Shown: positions 5,098 through 56,713 of the stretch, in pieces | How the letters are laid out: each line of letters begins with the position of its first letter | Numbering within the stretch: the stretch's first letter is position 1 | DNA from: Candidatus Spechtbacteria bacterium | GTDB taxonomy: Bacteria; Patescibacteriota; Minisyncoccia; Spechtbacterales; JACPHP01 | NCBI GenBank assembly: GCA_016188605.1 | Contig: JACPHP010000012.1 | Location: 149 to 64,148 of the forward strand | Direction: 5' to 3' | Length of the DNA stretch: 64,000 nt | Notes under the pieces: generated by a model | Seen by the model: only the letters and a program-made list of their open reading frames with translations | Database searches by the model: none | What the model was told of the DNA's origin: nothing | Made by a program: the position numbers and the translations under genes

Positions 5098-8000
5098 CTA
5101 GGAAGGATTGATGAACGCGCCACCGGTGATTGGCAAGCCCTTGATAAGGCCTACGAGAACATCGGTTGACACATCATCGTCCCAAGAGACATCTGCCGTA
5201 CCGTTAGCAATTGACAACTGGAAGCTGTCGCCATCGGTTTCGTAGTCAGCTAGGTTTGTCTCAACACGGAATTCCATAGTGGTTCCGGCTGGGATCGTAA
5301 CGCTCATATTGGTAACATCTGGTGTTTCACCGGCATCCAACACATTGTCTGCCGCTGTAACCGTACCAACCGAAGCGCCTGTATCCTGCCTATAAACCGT
5401 GATTCCTTGGTTTGTAGCATCATCATCTCCCTGGAAACCAGTCACGGTAAAGCGAAGGTTGTGGTTAGTTCCATCAAAGATGACATCACCTCCCGCGTCA
5501 GCGGTGATGGTGAAGCGCAAGGTCGTCATGGTTACCGGGCTAAGGGTGCCAGAAGGCGAAGCGCCGCCAGAGCAGGTTGCCGTACAGAGAGCAAATGTAG
5601 GTACTGTGCGGAATAAATACTGCGCGTTACCAATCGCCATGCTGTATACCTGGGTAGTAGCATTATCCGCGTGAACCGCGGCTGTGGTGCCGTTTACACC
5701 ACGGACAACTGTGTAGGTGTCTTCGGTTGCGCCATCGGCAATTGCGGTAATCAACTGCTCTTCGGTTCCAATGGTTATAATGGAGCCCACAAGATCGTCG
5801 TCGCCGCTGTCAGCGCCCGAACCGTTGTCCAAAACAAGCGATGTTACAGTGGCATCGGCTGCCTGTCCGGCACCGTCAACCACCAAGGCTGCAACACTCG
5901 CCGCGGTATTTTCGGTCAAGGTAAGGTCGGCTAGTGAACCGGATGAAACACCGTAAGCAACTACGGAGCCCACAAAAAGCTCTGGGGAATCGCCGGATGT
6001 TGCTCCGTTTGATGTGCCCAAAACGTCTGCCTTAATAGTCCATACCTTATTCGCATCCTTTGCGATATCAGTATTGCCTTCGGCAAAAGTAAAGGTAACT
6101 ACACCAGAACTAAAGTATCCATCGGCGCTTACTTTGGTGTCACCATCATAAAGCGCTACGCGAGAAAAGTTGTTATCAGACGCGCCAATTGCCTCGCCGC
6201 TATCTTCCTGGCGAACAACAATTGTGCGAATGTCAATGTCCTCGCTGTTTGCCGTCATCTTAAACTTCGTAAACGCGATGTTTGTCTTGCCCGATGTGCC
6301 AACCGCGGTCATTGCCGCAACTGGAGTTGAAGCATCGCGCACAAAGGTAAGGCTTCCGGCGTTTGCAAGGGTCATAACCTGGCCAGCAATGAGCGCGTTA
6401 TTTGAGCTTGCGCCATATACGGTGGAATTAGATGAAAGGCCGGTAGCCACAATATCTGAACCGCCTGTGGCATTCGCGTCATCCACACCAACTACTGCCA
6501 CTACACTGCCTCCCACGATGACATCGGCCTTCAAATCAAGTACTTTTTGCGAACCCTTGGCAACATCAACTGATATGCCGGTGAAAGCAGCTCGGTCATC
6601 ACCGGATACTTCCGTAAATGAAGCAAGTGACTTTACAACGGTTGTGCCATCATAAAGCTTTACATTGCTGAAGTACGTTTCCGACGCAACGTCTGCATCA
6701 AACGTACCGTCGTTGTCCACGGTAAACGTAATCGCGCTTACCTTCAAATCTTCAGCAGAACCTGCCGTAAGCACCAAGCGGCCAAGCCATGCTTGCGATG
6801 TGCTGTTTACATAGGTGGTTGCTGGAGGGTTAGTGGACATAGAAACAGTCAACGCGCCAACTAATGCCGTCATATTGCTGCCGTTAAGATCAGATGTCGT
6901 AGCAGTGACGCTAGCAGTTGAAGACACACCTGTCGCAACTACATCGGTGGCATTTGTTGTCCACAAAAGTCGCACGCGAGTTGCGCCAGCCCATGCCGTA
7001 TTTGCGTTTGTAGGCACATCCGAAGTTACGGTAAAGGTTTTAGTTGCGTCTTTTGCTATCGTCACATTAACACTGAACGTAGCGCTGGATGTGGGCGAAG
7101 CTACCGTAGAGCCAATCTGTGTCGCGCCGTCCCAGAGCTTTACATTGGTAAAGTCTCCGGATGCGGCGGCAGCGGCATTATCCTGCAAATTAAAGATCAG
7201 GGTGGAAATGGTGATTGCTTCACCATTTGCGGTAAAGTTGAACTTGCCGTACTCGTGGCCGGCTGTGCCGGGAACCACGTTCTTTGCGCCGGGATTAGTC
7301 GGAGCAAGGGCAATGGTTAACGTACCCACCGCGCTATTTGCATTGTGGGTGCGCACTTCGCCAAGGCCGTCAACGCCGGTTACCACCATTGCGTCCATAT
7401 TGGCTGCTGACTGCACGCCATCAAGACGCACTTCATTAAGCGCGATTTCTATTGTGGTATAGCTTGCTGAAGTGGAAACATCTCCGCGAACATGAAGTAC
7501 AACGTTTTTGCTTTTTGGAATGTCAAACACGCCGGTGTCAAGCCCCGGGGCGTCTGCTCCATAGGTTGCAACCGTGCCCACGAAATTCGTGGCTGTGCCA
7601 ACCTGTGTTTCAGTACCCGTCAACTCGTCATACTTATAAAGCGTTATATTGGAAACGTCTGTCGCGCCAGCGCCAGTACCAAGAAGATTCAAACGGATTC
7701 GGGCAACCCTCACATCCTGCGCCACTCCATTGGAGAAGCGAAATGCCGAGAACAGCTGCTGGGTTGTTCCGTTCACAAAGGCCTGCGCGGAAGGGTTGGT
7801 AGCGCCGTTTACCGCCACAGTCGGGATTGTGCCCTGGCCAACGGTCTGGGCAACGCCGCTCTGCGTGGTGTATGTAACACTATCGCCGCCCGTGTCAGTG
7901 GTAATAGTGATAGAACCGCCGGAGTTCGCGCCAAAAGCGACAACGTCCGCGGCTTCAGTAATCTCAAAGTCAATGGTTCTTGTGGTTGTGCCGGTAACAA

Positions 8001-9372
8001 TGCCCGCGGAAATGTCGGCGTATAGATAAATGATCTTTGATACCCCTGCGTTTATGCTATAAGGGGTCGCTGAAAGATCAAATACCGCGCTTCCATTTGC
8101 CATAAGTGATGGAACGGTTGAGCCAAGCTGAACACCATCTGCTTTAAGCATAACGTTTTTAACATCCGTTGAAGATGCGGAACCGGTTTGCGTTACCTTA
8201 ATACTGCGAACGCTCATGCCTTCTGTTTCCGCGTCAAAGGTCCACGAAGCAATTTCTACTGCAGTAGCACCCGCAACAGGAGAACTATCAGCTGGAACTG
8301 TTCGCAAAGTAACATCAAGAGTTCCTACGCCAATACCCGCGATGGTCATAGAATTGCCATATACAGGGAATGTGCCGGAAACCGTTGTGGTTGCTGTAAC
8401 GTCAGTGGCCGCGGCAATGCCCAAACGAGGCGTATTGCCCGTAGTGGCAGTGTTTGTGCCAAGAACGTCAAGCGTTCCAGTGATTGTAAGAATCTTTGTC
8501 GTGCCTGCTGGAACTACCCAGTTAAGGCCGGTAAAGGTTGCTTTGTGTGTGGTGGTGTTAAGCGCTTGCGTGCCACCAAGTTGGGTTGAGCCGTCCCACA
8601 GCTTCAATGCCGTGAAATCATTATCTTCGGCAAGCCCTGCTCGAGAAACTACGAGCGAGCTTATTGTGGTGTTAGCACCACCAACAAACTTTACTTTTGC
8701 AAACACAAAGTCTGACGCCCCACCTGCTACTTGCTGGGCCGCTGGAGTGCTGGAATCAAGAGCTATGGAAACGCCCGTGCCTGCTGGGGTAGTTGGGGTA
8801 GTGGTTGTGGTTGTTCCACCAAGCACATTCGTTGCCCATGTGGACAAACTGTCCGTCGCGGTCAACGCTGTTTGGGTAGGATAAAAGGTTGGGGATGCCT
8901 CTGTGGAATTAATCTTGTAGAGTGAATCCCAATCCAAACCAGCTGATTCAAATTCTGCTGCTGTAACATTGAGGTGACGTCGTTCGCCAGTGTCACTGCC
9001 TGCGGCAGAGGTTACCGCGTAAACCTTCGGGTCCTTTACGGAACCGTCGGCATTTATCTCTAGAACCAAATTGGAATTGGTGTATCCGTCCACTGTTGCC
9101 TGGGTAACGTCCTGAACATTGCTCCACTTCAAGTGTCCGTATGAGTTAAAGATTTCGGGGTTGAGAATCAACCTCTTAAACATCTTTGCTCCTACGAGCT
9201 TGACAATGTAGATGTCATTCGTTCCCGTCGCGCGAATAAGATCGCCATCGGCGATTGTTGCCGCGCTTGCGACAGGGGCAAGATACATTACTCCGGACAT
9301 GGAGATCGCAGTCACTGCCGATGTGAAAAACGACAATGTTGTGCGTAATCGTATCTTAGTTGTTTTACTCAT
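5098..9372 (-). CDS. Giant secreted surface protein (1424 aa) with tandem Ig-like repeats. The recurring motif is F(S/T)xVKL(W/Y)DG(S/T)TQ(I/L)G.
   Basis: It has a signal peptide and a Thr/Gly/Ala-rich sequence with repeated about 100-aa modules. Its N-terminal roughly 120 aa share a module with the C-terminus of the 12577..14322 protease. Confidence 0.75.
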   Translation of the reverse strand: MSKTTKIRLRTTLSFFTSAVTAISMSGVMYLAPVASAATIADGDLIRATGTNDIYIVKLVGAKMFKRLILNPEIFNSYGHLKWSNVQDVTQATVDGYTNSNLVLEINADGSVKDPKVYAVTSAAGSDTGERRHLNVTAAEFESAGLDWDSLYKINSTEASPTFYPTQTALTATDSLSTWATNVLGGTTTTTTPTTPAGTGVSIALDSSTPAAQQVAGGASDFVFAKVKFVGGANTTISSLVVSRAGLAEDNDFTALKLWDGSTQLGGTQALNTTTHKATFTGLNWVVPAGTTKILTITGTLDVLGTNTATTGNTPRLGIAAATDVTATTTVSGTFPVYGNSMTIAGIGVGTLDVTLRTVPADSSPVAGATAVEIASWTFDAETEGMSVRSIKVTQTGSASSTDVKNVMLKADGVQLGSTVPSLMANGSAVFDLSATPYSINAGVSKIIYLYADISAGIVTGTTTRTIDFEITEAADVVAFGANSGGSITITTDTGGDSVTYTTQSGVAQTVGQGTIPTVAVNGATNPSAQAFVNGTTQQLFSAFRFSNGVAQDVRVARIRLNLLGTGAGATDVSNITLYKYDELTGTETQVGTATNFVGTVATYGADAPGLDTGVFDIPKSKNVVLHVRGDVSTSASYTTIEIALNEVRLDGVQSAANMDAMVVTGVDGLGEVRTHNANSAVGTLTIALAPTNPGAKNVVPGTAGHEYGKFNFTANGEAITISTLIFNLQDNAAAAASGDFTNVKLWDGATQIGSTVASPTSSATFSVNVTIAKDATKTFTVTSDVPTNANTAWAGATRVRLLWTTNATDVVATGVSSTASVTATTSDLNGSNMTALVGALTVSMSTNPPATTYVNSTSQAWLGRLVLTAGSAEDLKVSAITFTVDNDGTFDADVASETYFSNVKLYDGTTVVKSLASFTEVSGDDRAAFTGISVDVAKGSQKVLDLKADVIVGGSVVAVVGVDDANATGGSDIVATGLSSNSTVYGASSNNALIAGQVMTLANAGSLTFVRDASTPVAAMTAVGTSGKTNIAFTKFKMTANSEDIDIRTIVVRQEDSGEAIGASDNNFSRVALYDGDTKVSADGYFSSGVVTFTFAEGNTDIAKDANKVWTIKADVLGTSNGATSGDSPELFVGSVVAYGVSSGSLADLTLTENTAASVAALVVDGAGQAADATVTSLVLDNGSGADSGDDDLVGSIITIGTEEQLITAIADGATEDTYTVVRGVNGTTAAVHADNATTQVYSMAIGNAQYLFRTVPTFALCTATCSGGASPSGTLSPVTMTTLRFTITADAGGDVIFDGTNHNLRFTVTGFQGDDDATNQGITVYRQDTGASVGTVTAADNVLDAGETPDVTNMSVTIPAGTTMEFRVETNLADYETDGDSFQLSIANGTADVSWDDDVSTDVLVGLIKGLPITGGAFINPS

Positions 9373-9545
9373 TTGTATATTTCCCTCTGAATTTTTCTTG
9401 CGAAAAAAGAAAAGGGTTAGGCCCTTTACGATATTCGTTAAAATATCGCGAGGGAGTGACCCGTCCGAAGTTCCGAATAATCGGAACGTGGGGGGGTGAA
9501 ATCAAATGCTCATATGTGCACCAGATGAACATTTGATGCTGGCCA

Positions 9546-9593
9546 CCGGGCGTTTATACGCCACGCAGCTGTGCGTGGCGTATAAACGCCCGG
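9546..9593. repeat. Long near-perfect palindrome (21-bp arms, CCGGGCGTTTATACGCCACGC...).
   Basis: Seen directly. It lies in the 560-bp leader upstream of the giant surface-protein gene. Confidence 0.6.
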
Positions 9594-9690
9594 CGACCGT
9601 TTGATCCTCTAGTCAGTATTATTTATTTCTCTGGCTTGAGGCATTGAATCGCAGTCGACCATCTTTAGTTAAAGTACGCTTCGGTTTTGG

Positions 9691-9756
9691 GTCTCCCCAG
9701 CTAGATCCTGAACTGCGCCGTAATTACGGGTTTGTTCAGGACTAAGCTGGGGAGAC
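9691..9756. repeat. Long imperfect hairpin (about 23-bp arms) enclosing the perfect 12-nt palindrome CCGTAATTACGG.
   Basis: Seen directly. Confidence 0.55.
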
Positions 9757-9935
9757 AGCTCTTAATAAAGAAAAACCTATCCTCCTTGGTGCCAAGGCGG
9801 ATAATCCGTTCAATCGCTACCTTGCACTAAATAGGTGCGAAGCCCCAAAGGGGCAAGGCAGTGATTGAACGCTTATCCAATTATATCAAAGAACTGCGTA
9901 TGTCTAAATGTGGATAAGTTTCTTTGCTTATCGCG

Positions 9936-10712
9936 CTATTTTAACAAAGCCTCTGCGGCGCTCACTGCTCGTAAAACAGCATCGTAGTCCCCCTCGGCAT
10001 AAAACTTTTCTGCTTCTTTCGCGATATAAATAACTGATTCATTGCCGTTTTCCTGCGCTTCAACCCAGACACGATTCAACCGTTCGCGCAAAAATGTACG
10101 GAAAGCCGTAGCGGTATCATCGCCGTACAATTCAAGAGAACTCAAGCTCTGTGAGAAAGCAGGGCTATCTGATTTTCTTACTTGCGTTTGCGTGTTAGAT
10201 GAACTCGTATTCACGTTCGCGCCATTTGCGGAAGCAACGTATTTTTTCGCCTTATTAAGCGCGGTGGCAGTACGTGGTTCTGACGCGCCTTGATTGTCTG
10301 GGGCAACTTCTTGAATTACGTTAATTACGTTGCCAGTCGCGTTATGAGAAATTCTTGCGATATCTATCTGCGTGGAAACCGCGGGCTGAAACCCGCCTGA
10401 CACAAAAACCATTATCGCAAAACCTCCTGTCAGCATGCTCATTGTCATGGCAAACGCGCCAGACGGAAGGGGGCGAAATACCCAATTCATCGCGTGAGCG
10501 AGGGAGAAAGCAGAAATACGTTCACGCTCTTCAATGGCCTGGCTTGCCATAGCAAAAATTCGAGCTTTTTCTTGCTCTTTCCATTGGCTGTCAAGCGTAA
10601 TTGCGCGCAAACTCTTCAATGATTTGATGAGCCGATCGTCGCTTGAACTTGAATTTTGTGATAGTTGTTCAGTGAAATTTTGCATATCTACTAAAGATGA
10701 CGTATGAGGCAC
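9936..10712 (-). CDS. Putative anti-sigma factor: a single-pass membrane protein encoded directly downstream of the ECF sigma gene.
   Basis: It has one TM segment (TGGFAIMVFVSGGF). Its position, co-directional after the sigma-70-family gene, supports the call, but no motif was recognised. Confidence 0.45.
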   Translation of the reverse strand: MPHTSSLVDMQNFTEQLSQNSSSSDDRLIKSLKSLRAITLDSQWKEQEKARIFAMASQAIEERERISAFSLAHAMNWVFRPLPSGAFAMTMSMLTGGFAIMVFVSGGFQPAVSTQIDIARISHNATGNVINVIQEVAPDNQGASEPRTATALNKAKKYVASANGANVNTSSSNTQTQVRKSDSPAFSQSLSSLELYGDDTATAFRTFLRERLNRVWVEAQENGNESVIYIAKEAEKFYAEGDYDAVLRAVSAAEALLK

Positions 10713-10746
10713 ACAAAACGTTACAATCTACCTACAGGAATCCATA

Positions 10747-10788
10747 GGAGGGTCGGTCCGTCCTGCACGCAGGACGGACCGACCCTCC
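10747..10788. repeat. Hairpin with 19-bp arms (GGAGGGTCGGTCCGTCCTG / CAGGACGGACCGACCCTCC) followed by TTTT. The same arms recur at 12497-12537.
   Basis: Seen directly. Confidence 0.65.
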
Positions 10789-10799
10789 TTTTGGTGTTA

Positions 10800-11375
10800 T
10801 CATTCTAGCTTCAACCTCTCACGAAGGGCATTCACACCCCTATGGGCAATCACCCGCACCGTGCCTTCGGGTTTTCCGACAATATCCGCAATATCGCTAA
10901 ACGGCAGGTCTTCCAAGTAATGCAGGGTAACAATTTCCGCCGTTTCTTCGCCGATTTCTGACAATGCCTGGCGTATACGCGCTATATCAAGAGAGTTTTC
11001 TACGTCTATGTTTATAGCATGCGCTTCGTCTATGCCGCCATGTGTTTCTGGGGCAGCCAACATATCTTCGTACGATACTGTGGGTCGCTGTTTGCGATAG
11101 TAGTCAATCAGGCAATTACGCGCTGTTTTATACAAAAACGCGCGAACGTTTTGAATGCCGCCTAGCGATGTGAGTACGGACGATTCCTGCGCGATAAAAA
11201 CGGCTTTATGCCCATTTTTAGATATCAGATAATTCCACATTCTAAGAAATACTTCCGAAGATAAATCCTGCGCAGTCTCCCTCGAATTTGTTTTCAAAAA
11301 CAGGAAACGAAAGATTTGATCGGCGTACTCGTCGTAAACGCGAGAAAAAAGTTGTTGAAATTGCCTATCTGTCAT
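10800..11375 (-). CDS. ECF-type RNA polymerase sigma factor (sigma-70 family regions 2 and 4).
   Basis: Region 2 is FLFLKTNSRETAQDLSSEVFLRMW. Region 4 is LPFSDIADIVGKPEGTVRVIAHRGVNALRERL. Confidence 0.85.
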   Translation of the reverse strand: MTDRQFQQLFSRVYDEYADQIFRFLFLKTNSRETAQDLSSEVFLRMWNYLISKNGHKAVFIAQESSVLTSLGGIQNVRAFLYKTARNCLIDYYRKQRPTVSYEDMLAAPETHGGIDEAHAINIDVENSLDIARIRQALSEIGEETAEIVTLHYLEDLPFSDIADIVGKPEGTVRVIAHRGVNALRERLKLE

Positions 11376-11380
11376 TCGTG

Positions 11381-11520
11381 ATTATAGACATTTAATGACA
11401 TTTACTGACATTTTATAATGCGATTATAGACATTTAATGACATTTTGTAGACATAGTTAATGACATTTACTGACATTTATATTTTAAGCAAAATGTCAGT
11501 AAATGTCATTAAATGTCTAT
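11381..11520. promoter_or_regulatory. Three copies of a 31-bp element (ATAGACATTTAATGACATTTACTGACATTTT): two direct (one interrupted) and one inverted. They abut the sigma factor start codon.
   Basis: Direct copies lie at 11385-11415 and 11428-11479; the inverted copy lies at 11490-11520. The recurring core is TGACATTTA. Confidence 0.5.
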
Positions 11521-11608
11521 TAACGAACTAAATTTTAGATAGAGATGACAATAGATATTGCTCCGGGGTGACTGAGCGAGGGTCTGAGACACAGAACAGT
11601 GTCTGTTG

Positions 11609-11631
11609 CCCCCCCCCCCCCCCCCCCCCCC
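11609..11631. repeat. Homopolymeric C23 tract.
   Basis: It lies between the stop of 11653..12303 and the sigma factor promoter region. It could be a slipped-strand site or an assembly artefact. Confidence 0.6.
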
Positions 11632-11652
11632 AGTTATTTACAAAAATATAAA

Positions 11653-12303
11653 CTATCCCGCAATATAATATTCCCGATTGCGCGTGCCTCCTCTCCTTTT
11701 TATCAAACGCATCTCCTCAAGCTTTTCAATATCCCGCAAAATCGTACGGGGATGCACGTTGGAAAATTTGACAAAAAAGGCTGTGGGGGGAGCCGGCCCC
11801 TCTTCTTTAATTCTCGTTAAAAGTTTTTTCTGCCGAAGATTAAGCAAGTCCGCGGAAGAATCCATCTCAACCACTGAAAAAGATTCTTGTAATCGTCGTT
11901 TGGAGGATTTTCGTTTTCTCGCTAACACGTCTTCGTTTAACGATATGCTGGCCAGCCGCTCTTCCTGCAGTTTTTTTTCTAAATCCTTATAAGCACGGAT
12001 GAGAATCTCAAAATTGCGCCCATTCACCCATTTCTGGCTTTTGGCTATATCTATAAAAGCGTAAAGAACGTCAAATTGTTTTACCGATTCTCTCAAAGAA
12101 GAATGCTTTGCCCCATTGTTATCATCTTTTATTTCGGGAGAGAGAATTTGATTTTCAGCAAAAATGACAAGGGGAATGATATTCAAGCTTGCCTCTCTCA
12201 ATTTGAACCGCAAAGGTTCTTCTTTTGGGAAAAGCTCTGTTACGCGATAAAGCGCCGAACACAGTTTGAGTGCTTCTTGAATCATGCTTCTCTTATACCC
12301 CAT
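11653..12303 (-). CDS. Putative regulator: an N-terminal four-helix-bundle (TIGR02436-like) domain fused to a C-terminal winged-helix DNA-binding domain.
   Basis: The N-terminal sequence ALKLCSALYRVTELFPKEE..RFKLREASLN resembles four-helix-bundle proteins. The C-terminus has an HTH-like LRDIEKLEEMRLIKRRGGTRNREY. Confidence 0.45.
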   Translation of the reverse strand: MGYKRSMIQEALKLCSALYRVTELFPKEEPLRFKLREASLNIIPLVIFAENQILSPEIKDDNNGAKHSSLRESVKQFDVLYAFIDIAKSQKWVNGRNFEILIRAYKDLEKKLQEERLASISLNEDVLARKRKSSKRRLQESFSVVEMDSSADLLNLRQKKLLTRIKEEGPAPPTAFFVKFSNVHPRTILRDIEKLEEMRLIKRRGGTRNREYYIAG

Positions 12304-12496
12304 ATAGCAAATAAGTGTCTATGGTCTATGGCTAGCCCGACCGAATACCAAAAAGTCCCCTTCTAATACAAGAGGACTATGAAACTATAGCACGAATACA
12401 GAAAAATACAAGCTTTCTATAACGTAACTGCTCATACCCTCTCATAAATTGGGGGGTGAGCAGTGACTTCTATAACTACTTCAGGACGGACTACTT

Positions 12497-12537
12497 CAGG
12501 ACGGACCGACCCTCCTGCGGAGGGTCGGTCCGTCCTG
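12497..12537. repeat. Second copy of the 19-bp-arm hairpin, preceded by a short direct repeat of CTTCAGGACGGA.
   Basis: Seen directly. Its arms are identical to those at 10747-10788. Confidence 0.65.
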
Positions 12538-12576
12538 AAGACCATATTAAACACATATTAAAACATTAGCTTATCG

Positions 12577-14322
12577 CTATATTCTTAAAATATTTCCTGT
12601 TTTATACCAAACAAACTCCCGCGCATTTACTGTAAAAACCGCGCTCCATGCACGACCACTTGCTTCAAACCGTTGAGGTGTCATATTAAGCCACTGTTTT
12701 GTTCCCGATCCCGCAAGCGTAACTTCATATATACGAAAATCCCCGGCTTTTTGTATGAGGAAACTTTCCTTATATCGCTGAAGCTCCTCCTCGGTTACTT
12801 CAACAATGTTCTCCCAACGCAAATGACCGTACATAGCCATAATCTGCGGAGACTGAATCCACCGCCTATAAAAACCATTGACCACATACACTTTTGTTGT
12901 CCCCTTCGCGCGAATAAGATCACCGTCGCGAATGACGCGCGGGGAAACGGCGGGGGGTTGAACATCCGTAAGATTAACAGAAATAGCGAGTATACGATAA
13001 ACCCCCAACTTCTCACGCCCCCTTATTTCCGTATGGCTTGCGGGAATAATAACAACAGAGCTTACATCATCCATAAAATCAGAAACGCGTACGGTCATTT
13101 TGCCTTCGCGCGTTTCGCTGTAAGAAATACGCGTCTCCCCCGTCAACAAAGTGGTAATAACTGGTACGCGAACATAATCATTATCTATGTGGGTGCGCAA
13201 AGAAATCTCCAAAACTTCAACCTTTTTTCCTTCTAAAAGTGAGGGAATAAAACGATACCATTGCGGTTGAAAATCCTGAAAAGCAGAATTTGATCCTACG
13301 GCGGGCGTTTGGCTGGAAATTGTATGAGTAACTGGCGGCTGAATATGTAAATTATTATACTGAAGCATAGGTTGAGAATACGCATATCGCCCCGTGCCAT
13401 CTATATCTCTATTTATCAATAAAGCTACTGTCCAATCTTCAAAAACATCGGAGAATGTCCGCGTTTTTCCCAGCGAGGCCAATGCCTGAGTTATTGCTTC
13501 CGCACCCACGTAACGAGAAGAATTTAACTGCTTGAGAAATACTTCTCCGTATTGACCAACAAGATAATGCAAAAACAGAGAAGCGGTAGCATAATCAATC
13601 GGCTCGTCTTCCCACACCAGTAGGGCGTCATTTGGGTTAAGGCGTAAAAGCCGTACGCTTTCTTGCAAACGGCTTCCTTCCCATGCATCATTAAAGCCTG
13701 CCGCGGTGACGGCATATTCGCTCTTTGCCTCGTCAAGCCAACGCTCCTCCTGCACTCCTTGCAATTTTGTCTTTTGATTTAAAGTAATAAGATGCTGGAA
13801 CTCGTGCGCCAATATCGCGCCTGCTTGCGATGAGTTTAACACGCTAGTCGCGCTAACATACAACATTTCACGCTCATTTGAATCATCAAAAAATGATTTT
13901 CCGTATTCATCATTTTTTCTAATATACCCCTCCGCCCTGGCTTTCATGCGCGTAAAATATATGGTTACGCGCGCATCGTTGTCAATTCCCGTATTCCATT
14001 CTCTGCCAAAAACGGCGCGAAGGCGCGGATAAGTGATTTGGTCAAATTCTTGAGCAATCTTTTGCGCGCGAATGGTAAATAAGTCTTGTTGTTCGGAAGC
14101 AAGCGCTCTAAAATATTCGTCTTCTACGTAGATGTAAGTTTGTGAAGAACCCAAAAGGAAACGCGCCTTTTCCTGAGTCTTGCCATCTTCTTCATAAGAA
14201 GAATCTACAAAAAATGTAGTATCTGTCTGCGCATGCAAATAATCAGCGGGATAAAAAGCTGCTGCAAAAATAACTATCGAAATAGCTGTGCGGATAGTAC
14301 TTTTCATGTCTAAAATACTCAT
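12577..14322 (-). CDS. Secreted zinc metalloprotease (HEXXH). Its C-terminal roughly 120-aa module is shared with the N-terminus of the giant surface protein.
   Basis: It has a signal peptide and the motif AHEFQHL. The C-terminal DGDLIRAKGTTKVYVV...YGHLRWENI aligns with DGDLIRATGTNDIYIV...YGHLKWSNV of 5098..9372. Confidence 0.6.
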   Translation of the reverse strand: MSILDMKSTIRTAISIVIFAAAFYPADYLHAQTDTTFFVDSSYEEDGKTQEKARFLLGSSQTYIYVEDEYFRALASEQQDLFTIRAQKIAQEFDQITYPRLRAVFGREWNTGIDNDARVTIYFTRMKARAEGYIRKNDEYGKSFFDDSNEREMLYVSATSVLNSSQAGAILAHEFQHLITLNQKTKLQGVQEERWLDEAKSEYAVTAAGFNDAWEGSRLQESVRLLRLNPNDALLVWEDEPIDYATASLFLHYLVGQYGEVFLKQLNSSRYVGAEAITQALASLGKTRTFSDVFEDWTVALLINRDIDGTGRYAYSQPMLQYNNLHIQPPVTHTISSQTPAVGSNSAFQDFQPQWYRFIPSLLEGKKVEVLEISLRTHIDNDYVRVPVITTLLTGETRISYSETREGKMTVRVSDFMDDVSSVVIIPASHTEIRGREKLGVYRILAISVNLTDVQPPAVSPRVIRDGDLIRAKGTTKVYVVNGFYRRWIQSPQIMAMYGHLRWENIVEVTEEELQRYKESFLIQKAGDFRIYEVTLAGSGTKQWLNMTPQRFEASGRAWSAVFTVNAREFVWYKTGNILRI

Positions 14323-15325: not shown

Positions 15326-15373
15326 GCGAGCGAGGGGGATTTGCGCTTATAAGCGCAAATCCCCCTCGCTCGC
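15326..15373. repeat. Perfect 48-bp palindrome (GCGAGCGAGGGGGATTTGCGCTTA | TAAGCGCAAATCCCCCTCGCTCGC).
   Basis: Seen directly. It lies in the galU upstream region. Other hairpins sit nearby at 15215-15250 and 15403-15426. Confidence 0.7.
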
Positions 15374-15800: not shown

Positions 15801-18800
15801 CTAATTCCCTAGCACATACATTAACCCGCCATTAGTGATTGCATAAACTAACCCGTCGCCGATTACCAGCGATAGCACCTTGCTATCAAGCTTGTATTGC
15901 CAAACGACCGTAAGCATGTCTGAATTGGCGGAATTGCCATTTCCATTGTTGTTCGTCGCGCTTTTTTGCAGCGCATAAATGTTTCCCGCTTCATCGCCAA
16001 CATACACTTTTCCGCTAGCGTCCGTGGAAACTAAGCTGCTGATATTGGCCGGCGCGGTAAACACAGCTTTGTTAGTCCCCTTGCTTGCGCCCTGCGTATT
16101 GAACAAATAAATTTTATTTTGCTGATATGACGCGCTGTATATTTCGCCGTTACCCGCGACAACTGGCGACTCCTTAAATGAAAGTGAGGGGCTCGCAATC
16201 ACGCTTTTCCATAAATACGCGCCGCCGTTTTGCGTGTCAAACGCGGCAACGCCTGTATTGATTTGGCTTGTTTGAAACTGCGCGTATAGTATGCCGCTAG
16301 CATCCAGACTTGGATCGCCAAGAATATATGTTATGCCGGTTGCGGGCGCGCTCTGCATATTGCGCGACCATAAAATAGCGCCGTCAGACAAAGATAGGAC
16401 TAGGAGCGTAAAATCATTGTTGGGATTTCTAACTATAACGTAAAGATTGTTGGCATCCAAAACGGGGGTACGAATTACACTAGCCGAAGATCCTGTAAAT
16501 CCGCTGATATTTAAAATACTTCCCCAATTGGGTACGGTTGTCCACAAAACAGTTCCGCCCGAGTCAAACGCCATACACTGGCGAAGCGTGCATGCGTACG
16601 CATTTCCTTGAGAATCTGTGATTGGCGAAGTCGCGTCGTGATTGCCGCCGCTTGTCGCCCACGTAATGCCCAACAAAACAGACGCAAGCAAAGAACCATC
16701 TGATGTTTGCAACACATAAAGCTTCCCTTGCGAGTTTGCAGTATTTGCGCCAATCGAAACAACGTACAATTTTTGGCTATCCGGAGAAAGCGCGGGCGCG
16801 CGCAGGTCGGGAGTTGAAATATCGTAATACCAACGCGCGTTACCATTAATATCGTATGAATATACTGAAGACTTACTCCCTACGGTAGTTGTAAGATATG
16901 AATTTCCCTCCGAATCAATCACGGGTTGAGAGATAGAAAAAGAGTATCCGGCAACTTGCATTTGTGATTTTATTTTTGCGTCACTGCTGGCAGACCAAGC
17001 AGGGCCATTTTTCGTGGACTCGTTTGTATGGCGCGCGTTAAAATATTTCATTGCCCAAATAGGCGCTCCGGAAAAATCCGCTTGCGCGGGCGTCGCGTCA
17101 GAATTTGTCGGCGTTGGTATGTCTAGCTGTGTAAAATCTTGCGCGTTGTTATCAGTGTCTTGATGCTGGTCACCGCGACTAATACTTTTATTTAGAGTTG
17201 GCGCTGCTACGGCTGTGTTTTCTTGCAGCGCGGAGGTTACGTCGCCCCATGCCACCGCATCAATGGGGGTTACCGCGCACGGAGTTTGTTTAGCGCATTC
17301 AGGGTCTTGTGAAAAAATCGCGATCGTTCCGCCCGTGTTTGCCAGCTGCGCGCTAGTGTAGGGCTGCCAGTCGGCGTTAGGGTTGTTGTTTGCTGTGTTG
17401 TATCCTTTGAAACCGATAAGATAGTAAGCGCCTGCGGAAATTAAAGCGGCGGAGGGGAATTGCTTGACGCGCCACGGATTGTCCCAGCTTGTTTTGCTGG
17501 TAGAATAGTACGCGAAATAATATCCGTCCAATGAGATATTCGCATCTGTTGGATTGTATAGCTCTACGAATTCAGAATCTCCTGTCTGTATTTCGTTGAT
17601 AACAATATGAAGCGGCAATGGCTGGAAAGAATCTTCGTCGGTTTCGCTGTCATCTTCGTCTAATTCGTCCGGTGATTGAGAAGAATTTCCGTCGTCTTCG
17701 TCTTCGTCTTCATCTTCATCTTCATCGACTTCATTTTCGTCTTCATCATCATCCGAATCTAAAGAGGTATCTGAATCTTCAACAACGGCCGCGTCATCAG
17801 CGGCCGTGTCATCTTCTTGAATCTCTTGAGTCTCTTGGGCAAGCGCCGCGTTTTGCTTGGGATTCGGAGTAATAGTAATAGAAAAGTCTTGCGCGTTATT
17901 ATTTGTATCAGCGTGGCTTGCGCTACGCGCGATACTTTGATTTATTTCCGGGGCGCCAGCCGCTGCCCCTTCAAAAAGGATAGTGTTTCCCCAGCCGACA
18001 GCGTCAATCATTCCTGCCTGCGCGTCTTGCGCGGATTTAGTTGATGGATCAAATGGAAAAACAGCCACGGTGCCTCCGCTATTTGCCAGCTGCGCGCTAG
18101 TATAGGGCTGCCAGTCGGCGTTGGGGTTGCCGCCGGTCGTGACATAATCCTTCAAGCCGATAAGATAATAATCTTGCCCCGATATACTTGCCCCGTCAGG
18201 AAATTGTTTTACGCGATATGGATCGTTCCACGCTGTTTTTGATGAAGAATAATAGGCAAAATAATGACCGGCGAGCAACATTGTTGCGTTGCTTGTATTG
18301 TAAAGCTCAATAAACTCCGCGTCGCCTGTTTGAATTTCATTTATAACAATCGTGGCGGGAGTGGCAGGCGCGGCAGGAGAATTTTGCTGTGTTTGGTTTT
18401 GTGTTTGCTGCGAGGTGTCGTTTTGCTGAGTGTCCTGCGCGGGCGATGAGCCCGCTGTCGGCGCTTCTTGTTCAAAAATATTTACTCCTCCGGGAGTCAT
18501 GGTTTTGGTCACGCGAAAGTCCTGATTGTTGCTGTTTGTATCCGCGCCGGATGGCCAGCGAATAATGCTCGCGGCAGTAAAAGAAACTGGCGCGGCCGAA
18601 CTTCCTTCAAATAATATCGCGTCGCCCCACCCCATAGCGTCAATGCGCGTGGAGCTACTTGTTTTAGGGTCGCCTTTCCAAAGCGCAAATGCGCCGGCGC
18701 TGTTGCCCAGGAGGTCGCTTGTGTAAACGCGCCAATTAAAATGTTCTGAGAAATCGCCAAATGCTATAATATAGTAGCCGCGCGCGGGAATTACGGCATC

Positions 18801-30893: not shown

Positions 30894-31088
30894 CCCGTTA
30901 AGATAGGTTGCGTTTCCATGCGCGCATGAAAACGCAACCGTAGATATCGCGCGTAAAATTATTATTCAATACACACCTAGATTTCCCCCGCAGAGTTAAA
31001 AAAATATCTGCTGTCTCTGGCGGGATTCATCTCTTATATTATAAGCAATTAGTACTATCTTGGGTAATTTTAATAATATACTATGCAA

Positions 31089-31115
31089 TTAGCACTCAAA
31101 GGTCAAGAGTGCTAA
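31089..31115. promoter_or_regulatory. Perfect CIRCE operator (TTAGCACTC-N9-GAGTGCTAA; HrcA-type) embedded in a 55-bp perfect palindrome (31075-31129). It lies between the divergent clpB and CDC48-like AAA genes.
   Basis: The sequence is an exact consensus match. The extended palindrome adds TATACT -10-like hexamers on both strands. Confidence 0.75.
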
Positions 31116-31221
31116 TTGCATAGTATATTTAATCCGCTCATCTGATTGACAGTGTCTTTCTTTCTGATAAGCTAGCGGTAGAGTTTTTTAAAAATTATTT
31201 TAAGAAAGATGGGGGTGGAAA

Positions 31222-33597: not shown

Positions 33598-34908
33598 TTA
33601 CGGCCGCTCTGCTAGGATTGCCTGCACTGTTTTTTCTTCGCCGCGATGAAGAATTTTTATTATGATTGTTTCGCCCACATTATGCTTGGCAATAAGGTCG
33701 GGAAGACTATTTTCTACGGTAATTTTTTTACCGCTAATTTCTAAAATAATGTCATTTTCAACGATTCCCGCCCTATCTGCCGGCGAGCCGGGCATGACGG
33801 CAAGTTCACCCGCCTGCTGGCCGCGCACAACGAGCGCGCCGTAATCAATAGAAAGATTATTTGCCTTTTGTATTGAGTCGTTAATAGTCATAGTGCGCAC
33901 ACCCAAAAATGGATAGCTTATTTTGCCCTTTTCCCGCACATCCCGAATGTCCTTCTTGGCTCTGTTGATGGGAATTGCAAAGCCAATATTTTGCGCGCCC
34001 TCAGCCATCGCGACGTTAACTCCGATCACCTCTCCCGCCAAGTTCAACAGCGGACCGCCGGAATTGCCCGGATTAATCGCCGCGTCAGTTTGAATTAATT
34101 CGCGCAAACGCTCTGATTCCACCCCCTTGCCATTTGCCGTCACGGAACGACGCAAGCCAGACACAACGCCAAGCGATGTCGTATTGTCAAACTCCCCGAG
34201 CGCGTTTCCAATTGCAATGACTGTCTGGCCCTGCGCCAATGCGTCGGAGTCCCCCAACTCAAGAGGCAAAAGGCTAATGCCTGTTACGCGCAAAAGCGCG
34301 AGATCTTCAAACGGATCGCGGGCTACAACCTTTGCTTCATGCTTTTCCCCGTCAGTAGTAACAACCGTATAATCTGCCTCATCGTCTGACACCACATGCT
34401 TATTAGTAAGCACCAGTCCGTCTTTCGATACAACAAAGCCAGTTCCCGCAGAAACTTGTTTTTGTGTTTTTTGCTGATTTTGAGGAGTTTGCGGCGTCAG
34501 TTGAGGGAAAAATTGCTGGAAAAAGGGATCATTAAAAAATGGTGAATAAACCACTGGCACGTCTTTTGTCGCCACCACACTCACCACGGAAGGAGATGCT
34601 TTTTTTACAACGGCTATAATTTTGTCTTCTTGAGAAGTTTGGGGCTGATATATGACCTGTGGGCCGTCCTGACTATTTTGGCCCTGCGTAATCATTTCCT
34701 GCTGCATAGGACGACGTTCAATCTCTCCGAAATATGTTTTTACAAATTGCGGCGGATAATAAAGCACGACAATTGCGCCGCCAAATCCCGCGGCAAAAGA
34801 AATTAGAATGATGACAAAAATTTTCCCAATGAAAAATGTTGGATGATGGCGATCTGCTTTGTAGGGAGAAAATGGAGAAAGCATGGTGATAAAATAATTA
34901 AAGTCCAA
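33598..34908 (-). CDS. htrA: HtrA/DegP-family serine protease with a C-terminal PDZ domain.
   Basis: The catalytic triad context is TNKHVV / DLALLRV / GNSGGPL. It has an N-terminal TM; the start is uncertain. Confidence 0.85.
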   Translation of the reverse strand: MDFNYFITMLSPFSPYKADRHHPTFFIGKIFVIILISFAAGFGGAIVVLYYPPQFVKTYFGEIERRPMQQEMITQGQNSQDGPQVIYQPQTSQEDKIIAVVKKASPSVVSVVATKDVPVVYSPFFNDPFFQQFFPQLTPQTPQNQQKTQKQVSAGTGFVVSKDGLVLTNKHVVSDDEADYTVVTTDGEKHEAKVVARDPFEDLALLRVTGISLLPLELGDSDALAQGQTVIAIGNALGEFDNTTSLGVVSGLRRSVTANGKGVESERLRELIQTDAAINPGNSGGPLLNLAGEVIGVNVAMAEGAQNIGFAIPINRAKKDIRDVREKGKISYPFLGVRTMTINDSIQKANNLSIDYGALVVRGQQAGELAVMPGSPADRAGIVENDIILEISGKKITVENSLPDLIAKHNVGETIIIKILHRGEEKTVQAILAERP

Positions 34909-35036
34909 ATTACAAATGACAAATCAAATCCAAAACTCAAATGTCAAAAGACTATAAGATAGAACACTATAATAGTTATTTTAATTTTTAAATTTTGACA
35001 TTGCTTTGACATTTGTAATTTGTAATTTGACATTTT
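34896..35036. repeat. Heptad-repeat palindromic element (arms built from CAAATGT/CAAATCA units and TTTGACA/TTTGTAA units) in the htrA upstream region.
   Basis: The left arm 34896-34950 and right arm 34991-35036 are inverted repeats. The TTGACATTT core resembles the element upstream of the sigma factor gene. Confidence 0.5.
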
Positions 35037-35054
35037 TATAACAAACAAAATATT

Positions 35055-38063: not shown

Positions 38064-38141
38064 CATTGAATAAAGAAAAAATCGCTGCGCGTTTGCGCAA
38101 CGATTTTTTTTTAAATGACGTAGCAAGATACAATAATAATC

Positions 38142-38684: not shown

Positions 38685-38734
38685 GCTTAATGCGTCAGCT
38701 TATTGCTGACGCATATTCATTTTCATACAATATA

Positions 38735-38776
38735 CAACAGAGAGGCGCGGCTAAATAGCCGCGCCTCTCTGTTGTA
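38735..38776. terminator. Strong bidirectional terminator (ACAACAGAGAGGCGCGGC-TAAATA-GCCGCGCCTCTCTGTTGT).
   Basis: Seen directly; 18-bp stem. Confidence 0.7.
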
Positions 38777-44014: not shown

Positions 44015-44300
44015 TTTATATAAGGTAACGCAGCCTGCGGGGCTACGCGATTTTGCCTTTATACAAATTGGTATAAGGTAGCCCAGCCACACAAACGTGT
44101 GCGGCTGGATGATTTTGCTTTTATACAAGGTAGCGCAACCCCGCCACGGTGGGGTTGCGCGATTTCGCTTAACGCAAATAGAATCAAGGGTAAAGTTGTT
44201 AACGCAGCGCTGCTGCGCTGCGCGATTTTGCCTTTATATAATACGGGTAATAACCCAACGTGTCCTACTTAACACGTTGGGTTATTACCCGTATATTAAA
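44015..44300. repeat. Tandem array of five hairpins with different stems (7 to 22 bp). Each is followed by the conserved tail GCGATTTTGCCTTTATA(C/T)AAGGTA.
   Basis: The units start near 44015, 44054, 44108, 44163 and 44226. Unit 5 has a perfect 22-bp stem (TACGGGTAATAACCCAACGTGT ... ACACGTTGGGTTATTACCCGTA). Confidence 0.6.
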
Positions 44301-47057: not shown

Positions 47058-47172
47058 ATAATTATCTCAAATGTCAAATCGCAAATCTCAAATCAAAATC
47101 TTAAATATAAAATCTTCGCTAGTAATTTTGAGATTTGAGTTTCAGTTTTGCGATTTTAGATTTGATTTTTGA
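47058..47172. repeat. Heptad-repeat palindromic element (copy A; CAAATCT-type arms) between ftsE and ftsX. It is preceded by a 15-bp-stem hairpin at 47017-47050.
   Basis: Its core TTTTGAGATTTGAGTTTCAGTTTTGCGATTTTAGATTTGATTTTTGA is almost identical to 47933-47978. Confidence 0.6.
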
Positions 47173-47175
47173 AAT

Positions 47176-47856
47176 TTATATCTTATATTTCCCCTTCTTA
47201 ACATCCCTTGTTATTCTTCCATTCTCCAACGTAACCACCCGCCGTCCAAGCGCGTCAACAATTTCCTTGTCATGAGTTGCCAGAATAACCGATGTTCCAA
47301 GCTCGTTAATTTTTACCAATAATTTAATAATTTCCCAAGTATGAATGGGGTCAAGATTTCCCGTCGGCTCATCTGCTAAAATAATTTCCGGACGTTGCAC
47401 GAGCGCGCGAGCCAATGACACGCGTTGCTTTTCGCCTCCGGAAAGCTCCTGAGGAAAACGATTTTCCTTTCCCTGCAAATCAACTAACGCCAGCGCCTGC
47501 GGCACGTCTTCAAAAATTTCGGCATCACTCTTCCCCGCCGCTTCCATCGCAAATGCAATGTTTTCAAACACGGTTTTACTTGGCAGTAATTTAAACTCTT
47601 GGAACACTACTCCTATACGCCTGCGATACCCGGGAACCTCGCGTCCGCGCAACGAAAAAACATCAACACCCTTAAAAAAAACTCGCCCATTGGTGGGGTG
47701 TTCTTCGCGTAGCAGTATGCGGAGTAGGGTGGATTTACCCGCACCCGAACGTCCAACCAATGAAACAAATTCGCGGTCTTCTATGCGAAGCGTGACATTG
47801 TCCAAAGCAGGGTCTTCGTTGGGATAAATTTTACTGACTTCTTGAAATAGAACCAT
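47176..47856 (-). CDS. ftsE: Cell-division ATP-binding protein FtsE.
   Basis: Contains [26 protein letters not shown] and [12 protein letters not shown]. Confidence 0.9.
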
Positions 47857-47870
47857 GAGAATTGCTACTT

Positions 47871-47985
47871 AATCTCAAATCTTAAATGGCAAATCTTAAA
47901 TCTACATCTCAAATCTAAAATCTTTGTCCGTAGTTTTGAGATTTGAGTTTCAATTTTGCGATTTTAGATTTGATTTTTGAGATTT
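47871..47985. repeat. Heptad-repeat palindromic element (copy B) between prfB and ftsE.
   Basis: It is about 95% identical to copy A across the roughly 60-bp core. Confidence 0.6.
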
Positions 47986-48002
47986 AAGAATCATTAACTT
48001 CA

Positions 48003-56432: not shown

Positions 56433-56677
56433 ACTAAAAAATGACGAGAATAAAAGTTTTTGATAGTGATATGAGTATATACTGAAAAATTTGATGACAC
56501 GAATATAAAAATGTGCTAAAGTCTATAAGTATGAACGTCACTGGCCACAAATTCCGTACTATAGCCAGGGTGGTGTGGATTTCTATAGTAATCCTTGTCA
56601 CCTTTAGCATGGTTGGATATCTTTTGATACCGCTATTCTAATAGTAGCGAAAACACACTAAAAATCAATCATCCTTA

Positions 56678-56705
56678 ACTAAATAACCTCGCATATGCGA
56701 GGTTA
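56678..56705. terminator. Terminator after lepA (AAATAACCTCGCATATGCGAGGTTATTT).
   Basis: Seen directly. Confidence 0.7.
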
Positions 56706-56713
56706 TTTAGTTT

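Follow-up and report, generated by a model that had tools for sequence, protein, structure and literature searches.

The stretch analysed here, 64,000 nt of contig JACPHP010000012.1 from a metagenome-assembled genome (MAG) of Candidatus Spechtbacteria, is hereafter called the window. On its minus strand, in the sense direction, a regulator gene is followed by a 277-nt spacer that carries an array of short GACATTT repeats, then by a gene for a sigma factor of the extracytoplasmic function (ECF) type and by a gene for a single-pass membrane protein (Table 1). Our study focuses on the array, whose units are probably operators for the regulator encoded next to it. At NCBI, the regulator is named hypothetical protein HYV65_02335 and is annotated with 210 aa; a look-up returned no record of the exact 216-aa product of the longer open reading frame (ORF). 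The sigma factor consists of regions 2 and 4 only. It scores 79.2 bits against TIGR02937 (cut-off 42.9), which agrees with its Pfam matches and with the ECF assignment proposed in an initial annotation of the stretch.

The array holds ten exact copies of GACATTT between positions 11387 and 11517, seven on the plus strand and three on the minus strand. In comparison, 13 copies are found in the remaining ~63.9 kb, and 11.4 are expected for the whole window. The repeats that the initial annotation had placed upstream of the sigma gene are thus real and far beyond chance. Inside the array, the start-to-start spacing of GACATTT is 10, 10, 22, 10, 23 and 10 nt. Read on the sense strand, the three distal units appear as GACATTT and the eight proximal ones as AAATGTC. 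The 31-mer that had been counted three times exists as one exact direct and one exact inverted copy, and these are the only two in the window at up to three mismatches. The supposed third copy (11448-11478) is an 87% match lying within a 42-bp tandem duplication. The large palindrome announced near 11485 was found as a perfect inner palindrome, and it corresponds to a 2+3-site palindrome in the ortholog L005.

Several promoter-like sequences are embedded in the array. TATAAT occurs on the sense strand at 11386-11381 and at 11428-11423, the proximal box ending 5 nt before the ATG of the sigma gene. In addition, a simple promoter scan found a sigma-70-like ATGACA-17-TAAAAT (11509-11481, minus strand), which spans the centre of the inner palindrome, and TCTACA-17-TATAAT, also inside the array. 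In total, the spacer contains 14 GACA cores when the small inverted repeat AGACAC-N6-GTGTCT is included. A 14-nt weight matrix built from the eleven sites gave no convincing target beyond the array when the window was scanned.

Table 1 Coordinates of the genes, repeats and candidate signals in the window
Feature	Position	Strand	Description
Operator array (predicted)	11383-11520		Eleven ~10-bp units T-W-H-W-GACATTT-W, ten with exact GACATTT
Exact 31-mer, proximal copy	11384-11414	+	ATAGACATTTAATGACATTTACTGACATTTT; ends 8 nt from the sigma start codon
Exact inverted 31-mer copy, distal	11490-11520	-	Full match to 11384-11414
Inner perfect palindrome	11457-11512		22-nt arms 11457-11478 and 11491-11512; 12-nt AT-rich centre ATATTTTAAGCA; centre ~11485
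42-bp tandem duplication	11380-11462		2.0 copies, 85% matches; covers two to three sites and a TATAAT box
Small inverted repeat	11587-11604		AGACAC-N6-GTGTCT; adjoins C23; one GACA and one TGTC core
C23 tract	11609-11631		C23 on the plus strand, G23 on the sense strand; 21 nt past the regulator stop codon; 88 nt from the array
Regulator gene	11653-12285	-	210 aa as annotated at NCBI; ORF reaches 12303 (216 codons)
ECF-type sigma factor gene	10800-11375	-	191 aa; Pfam Sigma70_r2, r4 and r4_2; TIGR02937
Single-pass membrane-protein gene	9936-10685	-	249 aa from ATG 10685
Candidate ECF-type promoter	10699-10724	-	GTAAC-N17-CGTC; 16 nt upstream of ATG 10685
Candidate regulator promoter	12292-12329	-	TAGACA (12321-12316) as putative -35, 18-nt spacer, TATAAG (12297-12292)
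GC-rich perfect hairpin	12494-12540		Upstream of the regulator promoter; shares GGGTCGGTCCGTCC with 10746-10789
GC-rich perfect hairpin	10746-10789		21-bp stem; past the sigma stop codon, ahead of the ECF-type promoter; second GGGTCGGTCCGTCC copy
TGACATT cores upstream of htrA	34940-35034		Four cores: 34940-34946 minus; 34996, 35007 and 35028 plus; spacing 11 and 21

A conserved unit in related genomes

Related loci were gathered by the regulator from metagenome contigs and by sigma alignment from one genome per species; when the regulator was aligned against genome contigs, 253 pattern matches were obtained, none of which was confirmed. Of 29 non-redundant loci with a full-length regulator, 25 have a sigma homolog that starts on the same strand no more than 400 nt past the regulator; the other four, at 22-23% identity, are the most distant matches. 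Statistics on the regulator-to-sigma spacers were computed from 35 non-redundant related loci. These spacers have a median length of ~75 nt and nearly always contain two to seven short repeats, the GACA/TGTC core of which is invariant. The density of this core is 4.88 per 100 nt in the spacers versus 0.54 elsewhere in the same loci, an approximately nine-fold enrichment. Sites in the same orientation are separated by 10-12 bp in 39 of 68 cases and by 19-22 bp in 21 of 68, which corresponds to one or two helical turns. The number of sites per locus ranges from 1 to 11, with no preference for five, the subunit number of an Avd-like pentamer. The window array, of about eleven units (14 GACA cores in the spacer), is the largest in the comparison of 35 loci; recent duplications have brought the predicted operator region of this genome to this size.

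The bases on the 5' side of the core are lineage-specific. TAGGACA, GTGACA, GCGACA, GAGACA, TGGACA, CGGACA and GGGACA are encountered among the relatives, and wTGACATTT is found in the window and in its closest ortholog, L005. Of all alignment columns of the two proteins, the best predictor of the base preceding GACA is column L189 of the regulator (216-aa ORF numbering; L183 in the 210-aa protein), the fourth position of the RTxXRD recognition helix, with a normalised mutual information of 0.84; the best sigma column reaches 0.55. All 19 loci with Arg at this position have G, and 18 of the 19 with another residue have a base other than G (Fisher p = 1e-9, without correction for phylogeny). 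In two swap pairs of close relatives, motif and helix residue change jointly. L016 (GAGACA, RTLVRD, Val) and L025 (GTGACA, RTLIRD, Ile) have identical sigma regions 4.2, and so do L009 (GCGACA, Leu) and L034 (GTGACA, Ile). The rule was then checked prospectively on four further loci, picked because their residues at the key position (Q, I, L and L) are unusual. Each had a GACA array, and none had G at the base in question. A finer rule associating Leu with C failed prospectively in L106 and L107, and only the association of non-Arg with non-G held.

The repeats also go together with the regulator gene. Upstream of 19 sigma homologs lacking a detected regulator match, one of which (L060) does carry a truncated regulator, the density is 0.93 cores per 100 nt, near background. 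Several of the regulator-less loci have GTAAC(A)-N16-CGTC upstream of the sigma gene instead. As a separate observation, a GACA-N7-GACA pair lies ~70-80 nt upstream of five sigma homologs without a detectable regulator (L070, L073, L074, L077 and L083). There, the conserved upstream block also holds an ECF-like TGTAACA...CGGTCC promoter, and in L073 the gene upstream of sigma is divergent and unrelated.

The sites are also found close to the ends of the regulator gene. In the GCGACA and GTGACA lineages, the regulator promoter is a clear sigma-70-like TTGACA-N17-TAGAAT that carries one site between its two boxes and another at the start site, as illustrated by L038 (TTGACA-ccccaa-TGTCGCA-atta-TAGAAT-...-TGCGACA-tt-ATG). 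The sigma-proximal sites of these lineages are likewise arranged around a TAGnAn box. In the window, an ATAGACC-ATAGACA pair is present on the sense strand at 12316-12329, ahead of the regulator gene, and L005 has the identical layout TAGACA-N18-TATAAA-ATG. In both, one site coincides with the -35 box of the candidate promoter. Given the ATG at 12285, the position of this promoter suggests that the regulator mRNA would be leaderless or have a very short leader. At the other end of the gene, the first site of the spacer often overlaps the regulator stop codon (TAG|GACA, G-TGA|CA) or the last codons (AAT GCG ACA TTA TAA), so that the C-terminus of the protein and its own predicted binding site share bases. 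Overlaps of these kinds were seen in L006-L022, L024, L029, L034, L038 and other loci. In L106, about eight tandem CTGACTT (GACTTCT) heptamers (893-975) directly follow the regulator stop codon and precede a mixed GACA-core array.

The regulator and the sigma factor

The AlphaFold2 model of the regulator (predicted local distance difference test score, pLDDT, 86.7) comprises a four-helix bundle (helices within residues 2-129), a disordered linker and a winged helix-turn-helix (HTH) domain at residues 150-208. HTH_DeoR (PF08220) is matched by 28 of 32 homologs, with a best E-value of 6.4e-11. The window regulator aligns throughout with these homologs and shares their RTxxRD helix. When the N-terminal 125 residues of the model were compared with the PDB, the best matches were 2gsc (Foldseek E = 3e-3, target TM score 0.70-0.78) and 2rld; a sequence profile matched 2gsc with E = 2e-4. 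The Pfam bAvd model gave 17 bits on the window regulator, for a cut-off of 40. A classical anti-sigma domain was also considered for the bundle and was rejected, no such match being present among the PDB Foldseek hits. No family member gave a DeoR_C match. The domain order is opposite to that of classical DeoR proteins, with the HTH at the C-terminus and no effector domain of their kind.

A profile search yielded ~100 relatives, several of which are named "DeoR family transcriptional regulator" in Nealsonbacteria, Minisyncoccales and other Patescibacteria. In an exhaustive search, the family amounted to 655 clusters at 50% identity (E<=1e-30). Judging from the source names of the homologs, it appears confined to Patescibacteria-type genomes.

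Two groups of characterized proteins resemble parts of this regulator. E. coli DeoR, GlpR and their relatives act on several tandem operator sites. The regulator shares with these repressors a DeoR-type winged helix with an S/N-x-R-T-x-x-R-D recognition helix, as well as several short, helically phased sites over promoters, which would imply cooperative binding of an oligomer. In contrast to them, its HTH is C-terminal, an Avd-like four-helix bundle replaces the sugar-phosphate-binding DeoR_C domain, and the predicted target is a sigma factor gene instead of a catabolic operon. The bundle, for its part, is modelled with four helices, and its best PDB matches (2gsc, 2rld) belong to the Avd and "S23 ribosomal protein" (23S rRNA intervening-sequence) four-helix proteins. 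Unlike these proteins, it is fused to a DNA-binding domain and scores far under the bAvd cut-off, and the window locus has no link to a retroelement or to rRNA.

A candidate promoter of another type lies on the other side of the sigma gene. Of 32 related loci, 17 have an exact GTAAC-N16/17-CGTC immediately behind the sigma gene, and several others have near variants of the GTAATA-N16-CGTCAT type; the exact pattern has only 33 matches in 1.0 Mb of locus sequence. In the window, the exact and relaxed patterns together gave a single intergenic site, the candidate at 10699-10724, all others lying inside genes. GTAAC-N17-CGTC is probably the promoter motif of the sigma factor itself, and this sigma would use it to transcribe the membrane-protein gene. 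The longest ORF of that gene begins at GTG 10712, inside the motif. The true start is likely ATG 10685, as called on Logan contigs.

A membrane-protein gene with an N-terminal LIxxLKxLRxIKPxxDW motif and one transmembrane (TM) segment follows sigma in nearly all related loci. The protein matches no Pfam or NCBIfam family and no known anti-sigma family, and is putatively either an anti-sigma factor or the first target of the sigma factor. The arrangement recalls ECF sigma/anti-sigma modules such as sigma-E/RseA, SigW/RsiW and BldN/RsbN, in which a two-domain sigma is likewise followed by a single-pass membrane protein and the promoters are of the -35 AAC/-10 CGTC type. It departs from them in three respects. 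In the loci with a regulator, the ECF-type promoter lies after the sigma gene and before the membrane-protein gene, a predicted operator array of the regulator occupies the place of an autoregulated promoter ahead of sigma, and the membrane protein matches no known anti-sigma family. A parallel for the control of the sigma gene is found in Streptomyces, where transcription of sigE is under the CseBC two-component system. In both cases, transcription of a sigma gene would be governed by a dedicated DNA-binding regulator encoded adjacent to it. Unlike CseBC, however, the window regulator is a one-component protein of another fold and probably a repressor, not an activator.

The C23 tract, htrA and neighbouring features

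The C23 homopolymer reported in the initial annotation exists, 88 nt beyond the array, and is the only homopolymer of at least 10 nt in the window, the next longest being T9, such as the run at 38104. It is part of a 132-nt segment (11521-11652) without similarity elsewhere in the window or in the related loci. Hence C23/G23, as far as this comparison indicates, sits in a lineage-specific insertion outside the conserved unit. The tract lies in no ORF and in no -35/-10 spacer, the nearest candidate -35 box being ~95 nt away. At this place, the MAG reads AAATAAC-T-G23-CAACAG, and a Logan contig of SRR12113424, another sample of the same study, reads AAATAAC-T9-G27 and stops inside the run. This difference between T9 G>=27 and T1 G23 is one hint of length instability; it concerns one contig end, and slippage during library preparation or sequencing, or assembly at the k-mer limit, could explain it. 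The Logan k = 31 assemblies of the same population (L001-L004; SRR12113420/24/25/28) are interrupted exactly at the border of the 31-nt inverted repeat and again within the G tract. The locus is thus fragmented in short-k assemblies and easily missed. Because unique sequence flanks the tract on both sides, poly-G read tails, considering how such tails arise, are unlikely to have produced it through misassembly.

The htrA gene (33598-34908, identified by Pfam and NCBIfam scans) was the basis for extending the motif to a regulon in the initial annotation. Four TGACATT cores do lie upstream of it and are not random; about 10 scattered copies are found elsewhere, near the chance value of 8.9. They belong to a 160-nt palindromic array of 7-bp units (34886-35042), four of which contain TGACATT. 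The matrix of the sigma array scores these sites under 9 bits, only the core being in common, and a search of the window with the exact and relaxed patterns found no ECF-type promoter upstream of htrA. Moreover, the whole htrA element aligns with two heptamer arrays of the ftsE/ftsX region, which use GAGATTT-type units. The cores at htrA are no evidence for a sigma regulon, and the part of the earlier proposal that presented them as a regulon mark is not supported. The chances that htrA is a second target of the regulator are about even, the link resting on four core matches.

The two similar palindromic arrays extend over 47064-47177, between a release-factor gene and ftsE, and over 47871-47989, between ftsE and ftsX. 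Both are built as (AAATCNC)n followed by (GNGATTT)n, with nearly identical right arms (47125-47177 and 47932-47984). All three heptamer arrays lie between co-directional minus-strand genes. They may form RNA hairpins that resemble terminators, belong to a dispersed repeat family or be sites of another protein. Five further perfect palindromes with 18-24-nt arms are intergenic (15326-15373, 31075-31129, 38733-38776, 44241-44294 and 56677-56712) and may be terminators or operators.

Closer to the unit, the two GC-rich hairpins with GGGTCGGTCCGTCC, the sole copies of this sequence in 64 kb, bracket the regulator-sigma pair exactly. They may act as insulating terminators or be traces of a cassette. 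Large ORFs at 5098-9372, 12577-14322 and 15801-20885 encode proteins of 1424, 581 and 1694 aa. No Pfam or NCBIfam family was matched by the 1424-aa and 581-aa proteins. The 1424-aa and 1694-aa proteins have signal-peptide-like N-termini and low-complexity stretches rich in Thr/Ala or Gln/Asp, and are probably surface proteins.

Alternative readings and a proposed circuit

That the repeats might be an operator for the regulator at 11653-12303 had been raised in the initial annotation, and the comparison points to this role. The syntenic arrangement, the nine-fold enrichment and the helical phasing all favour it. The array is assigned to the regulator because its flank co-varies with the recognition helix, because it is absent where the regulator is absent and because the sigma factor has a different promoter motif. 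Overall, we consider it likely that the GACATTT repeats are operators for the adjacent four-helix/DeoR winged-HTH regulator and form part of a unit of regulator, array, sigma and membrane-protein genes that is present in many of the ultra-small bacteria of the Candidate Phyla Radiation (CPR).

Several observations weigh against this assignment or complicate it. Taken alone, the window regulator has a weak match to a MarR-type HTH (E = 7.5e-4, below threshold), and its attribution to DeoR draws on the homologs. Residue and base do not correspond one-to-one. Where the residue is Leu, the base is C in one clade, T in the window, L005 and L107, and mixed in L106; in L081, Ser is combined with G; and one TGTCCAA site persists in the GCGACA clade. 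No site was seen ahead of the regulator gene in the AGGACA class, which means that autoregulation is not a general feature. Sigma-proximal sites are in the TGTC sense orientation at 29 of 35 loci, often 9-15 nt before the ATG; a pure repressor has no need of such a fixed orientation, which could hint at activation or at an overlap with a promoter element. Finally, repression is the likely mode of control, a view taken solely from the positions of the sites.

The fixed orientation could also be accommodated if the repeats were the promoter elements of the sigma factor itself, as first suggested, so that they would mediate positive autoregulation and mark a regulon including htrA. ECF sigma genes are commonly autoregulated, the -10 elements of ECF promoters are of the CGTC type, to which TGTC is similar, and TGACATT recurs upstream of htrA. 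However, sigma region 4.2 is identical between loci whose repeats differ, and no sigma column follows the motif as the regulator helix does. The repeats reach 11 copies, face both ways and are missing at sigma homologs without the regulator. In addition, the separate GTAAC-N16/17-CGTC motif is conserved downstream of sigma, is found upstream of it only where the regulator is absent, and does not precede htrA. This role for the repeats is accordingly very improbable. Another possibility is that the palindrome functions at the RNA level or by forming a DNA cruciform. In a transcript reading through from the regulator gene, pairing of the 31-mers would hide the beginning of the sigma mRNA and could thereby attenuate transcription, direct processing or block translation. 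Indeed, the spacer (275 nt) folds to -93.8 kcal/mol (z = -8.5 versus shuffled sequences) with a stem of ~31 bp near the AUG, and the arms are 100% complementary, including at positions outside the cores. Such a long stem is not conserved, however. The arms of L005 have only a ~9-nt motif in common, and L010, L023, L032, L035, L036 and L081 contain direct repeats only, which are unable to pair. Recent duplication would explain the identity of the arms equally well, the array itself containing a 42-bp tandem duplication, and an Rfam scan of 9300-12700 at E<=1 returned only hairpin-driven microRNA (miRNA) noise. We thus regard a function of the palindrome at the RNA level as improbable.

The look of terminal inverted repeats, the hairpin whose two copies bracket the regulator-sigma pair and the other palindromic short-unit arrays of the window would suit a mobile or selfish repeat, such as a miniature inverted-repeat transposable element (MITE) or iterons, unrelated to the regulation of the neighbouring genes. 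Against this, the position between the same two genes is held in dozens of distant genomes and the motif tracks the regulator, the window has no copy of the 31-mer outside the array, and the adjacent genes are the regulator and the sigma factor, without any replication or transposition gene. Because the position is conserved and the protein co-varies, readings as a mobile element or as iterons are excluded for practical purposes, and we give them almost no weight. As for the C tract, the initial annotation saw in it a possible slipped-strand on/off switch of the ECF regulon; the sigma gene itself could equally be what is switched. Hypermutability of long G/C runs is known from contingency loci. 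C23 shares a slippage-prone length with the poly-G/C tracts of Neisseria, Haemophilus, Campylobacter and Helicobacter, it is the one long homopolymer in 64 kb, and its length possibly differs between two independent assemblies of the same population. Unlike those tracts, it is outside any reading frame and promoter spacer, being located past the regulator stop codon and well before the nearest candidate -35 box, and no effect of it has been demonstrated. Nor is it kept in relatives, since no G/C run of at least 10 nt occurs in the 35 related spacers or in ~100 related loci and the surrounding segment is unique to this genome; the difference between assemblies can be explained by polymerase slippage or by assembly at the k-mer limit. 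The proposed phase variation is therefore not borne out and looks unlikely. This case warns that a homopolymer next to a regulator is not a phase switch without positional and comparative support.

Assigning the array to the regulator leads to the following model. Several regulator subunits would line up along one face of the DNA and cover the sigma-70-like promoter or promoters of the sigma gene and, in some lineages, the promoter of the regulator gene as well. Such cooperative binding over promoters, deduced from the positions of the sites, would amount to repression. The bound regulator would hold the promoters shut until a signal received through the four-helix domain releases it. The freed sigma factor could then transcribe the membrane-protein gene, whose product, as a probable anti-sigma factor, would provide feedback, together with a further regulon.

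A broader proposal may be formulated, which we regard as doubtful when taken as a whole. Four-helix/DeoR-HTH proteins would constitute a hitherto undescribed, CPR-wide class of oligomeric transcription factors with an almost readable recognition rule, in which the invariant RTxxRD helix reads GACA and its variable fourth position sets the preceding base (Arg for G). In these reduced genomes, the class would have assumed control of the main stress module of ECF sigma and membrane protein, in place of sigma autoregulation. In this Spechtbacteria lineage, the duplication-expanded array and G23 would form a mutable region that adjusts the response, and htrA would be a second target bearing operators.

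Control by a repressor and its operator is familiar, as are ECF sigma modules. What is new here is the protein architecture, its tight and widespread pairing with an ECF sigma factor in Patescibacteria, a predicted GACA-core operator with a specificity residue and an ECF-type promoter that has moved to the far side of the sigma gene. A literature search on the module, on ECF sigmas in CPR and on homopolymeric tracts in CPR found nothing relevant, which is no proof of absence. To our knowledge, gene regulation in Patescibacteria/CPR is almost unstudied; these organisms cannot be grown alone and have very few regulators. In this context, the locus yields a testable circuit, composed of a regulator family, an operator motif with a predictable specificity position and a candidate ECF-type promoter, all of which could be tested without a culture of the organism, either in vitro or in E. 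coli. In addition, the family offers a natural series of changes in protein-DNA specificity, which is of interest for the engineering of orthogonal repressors.

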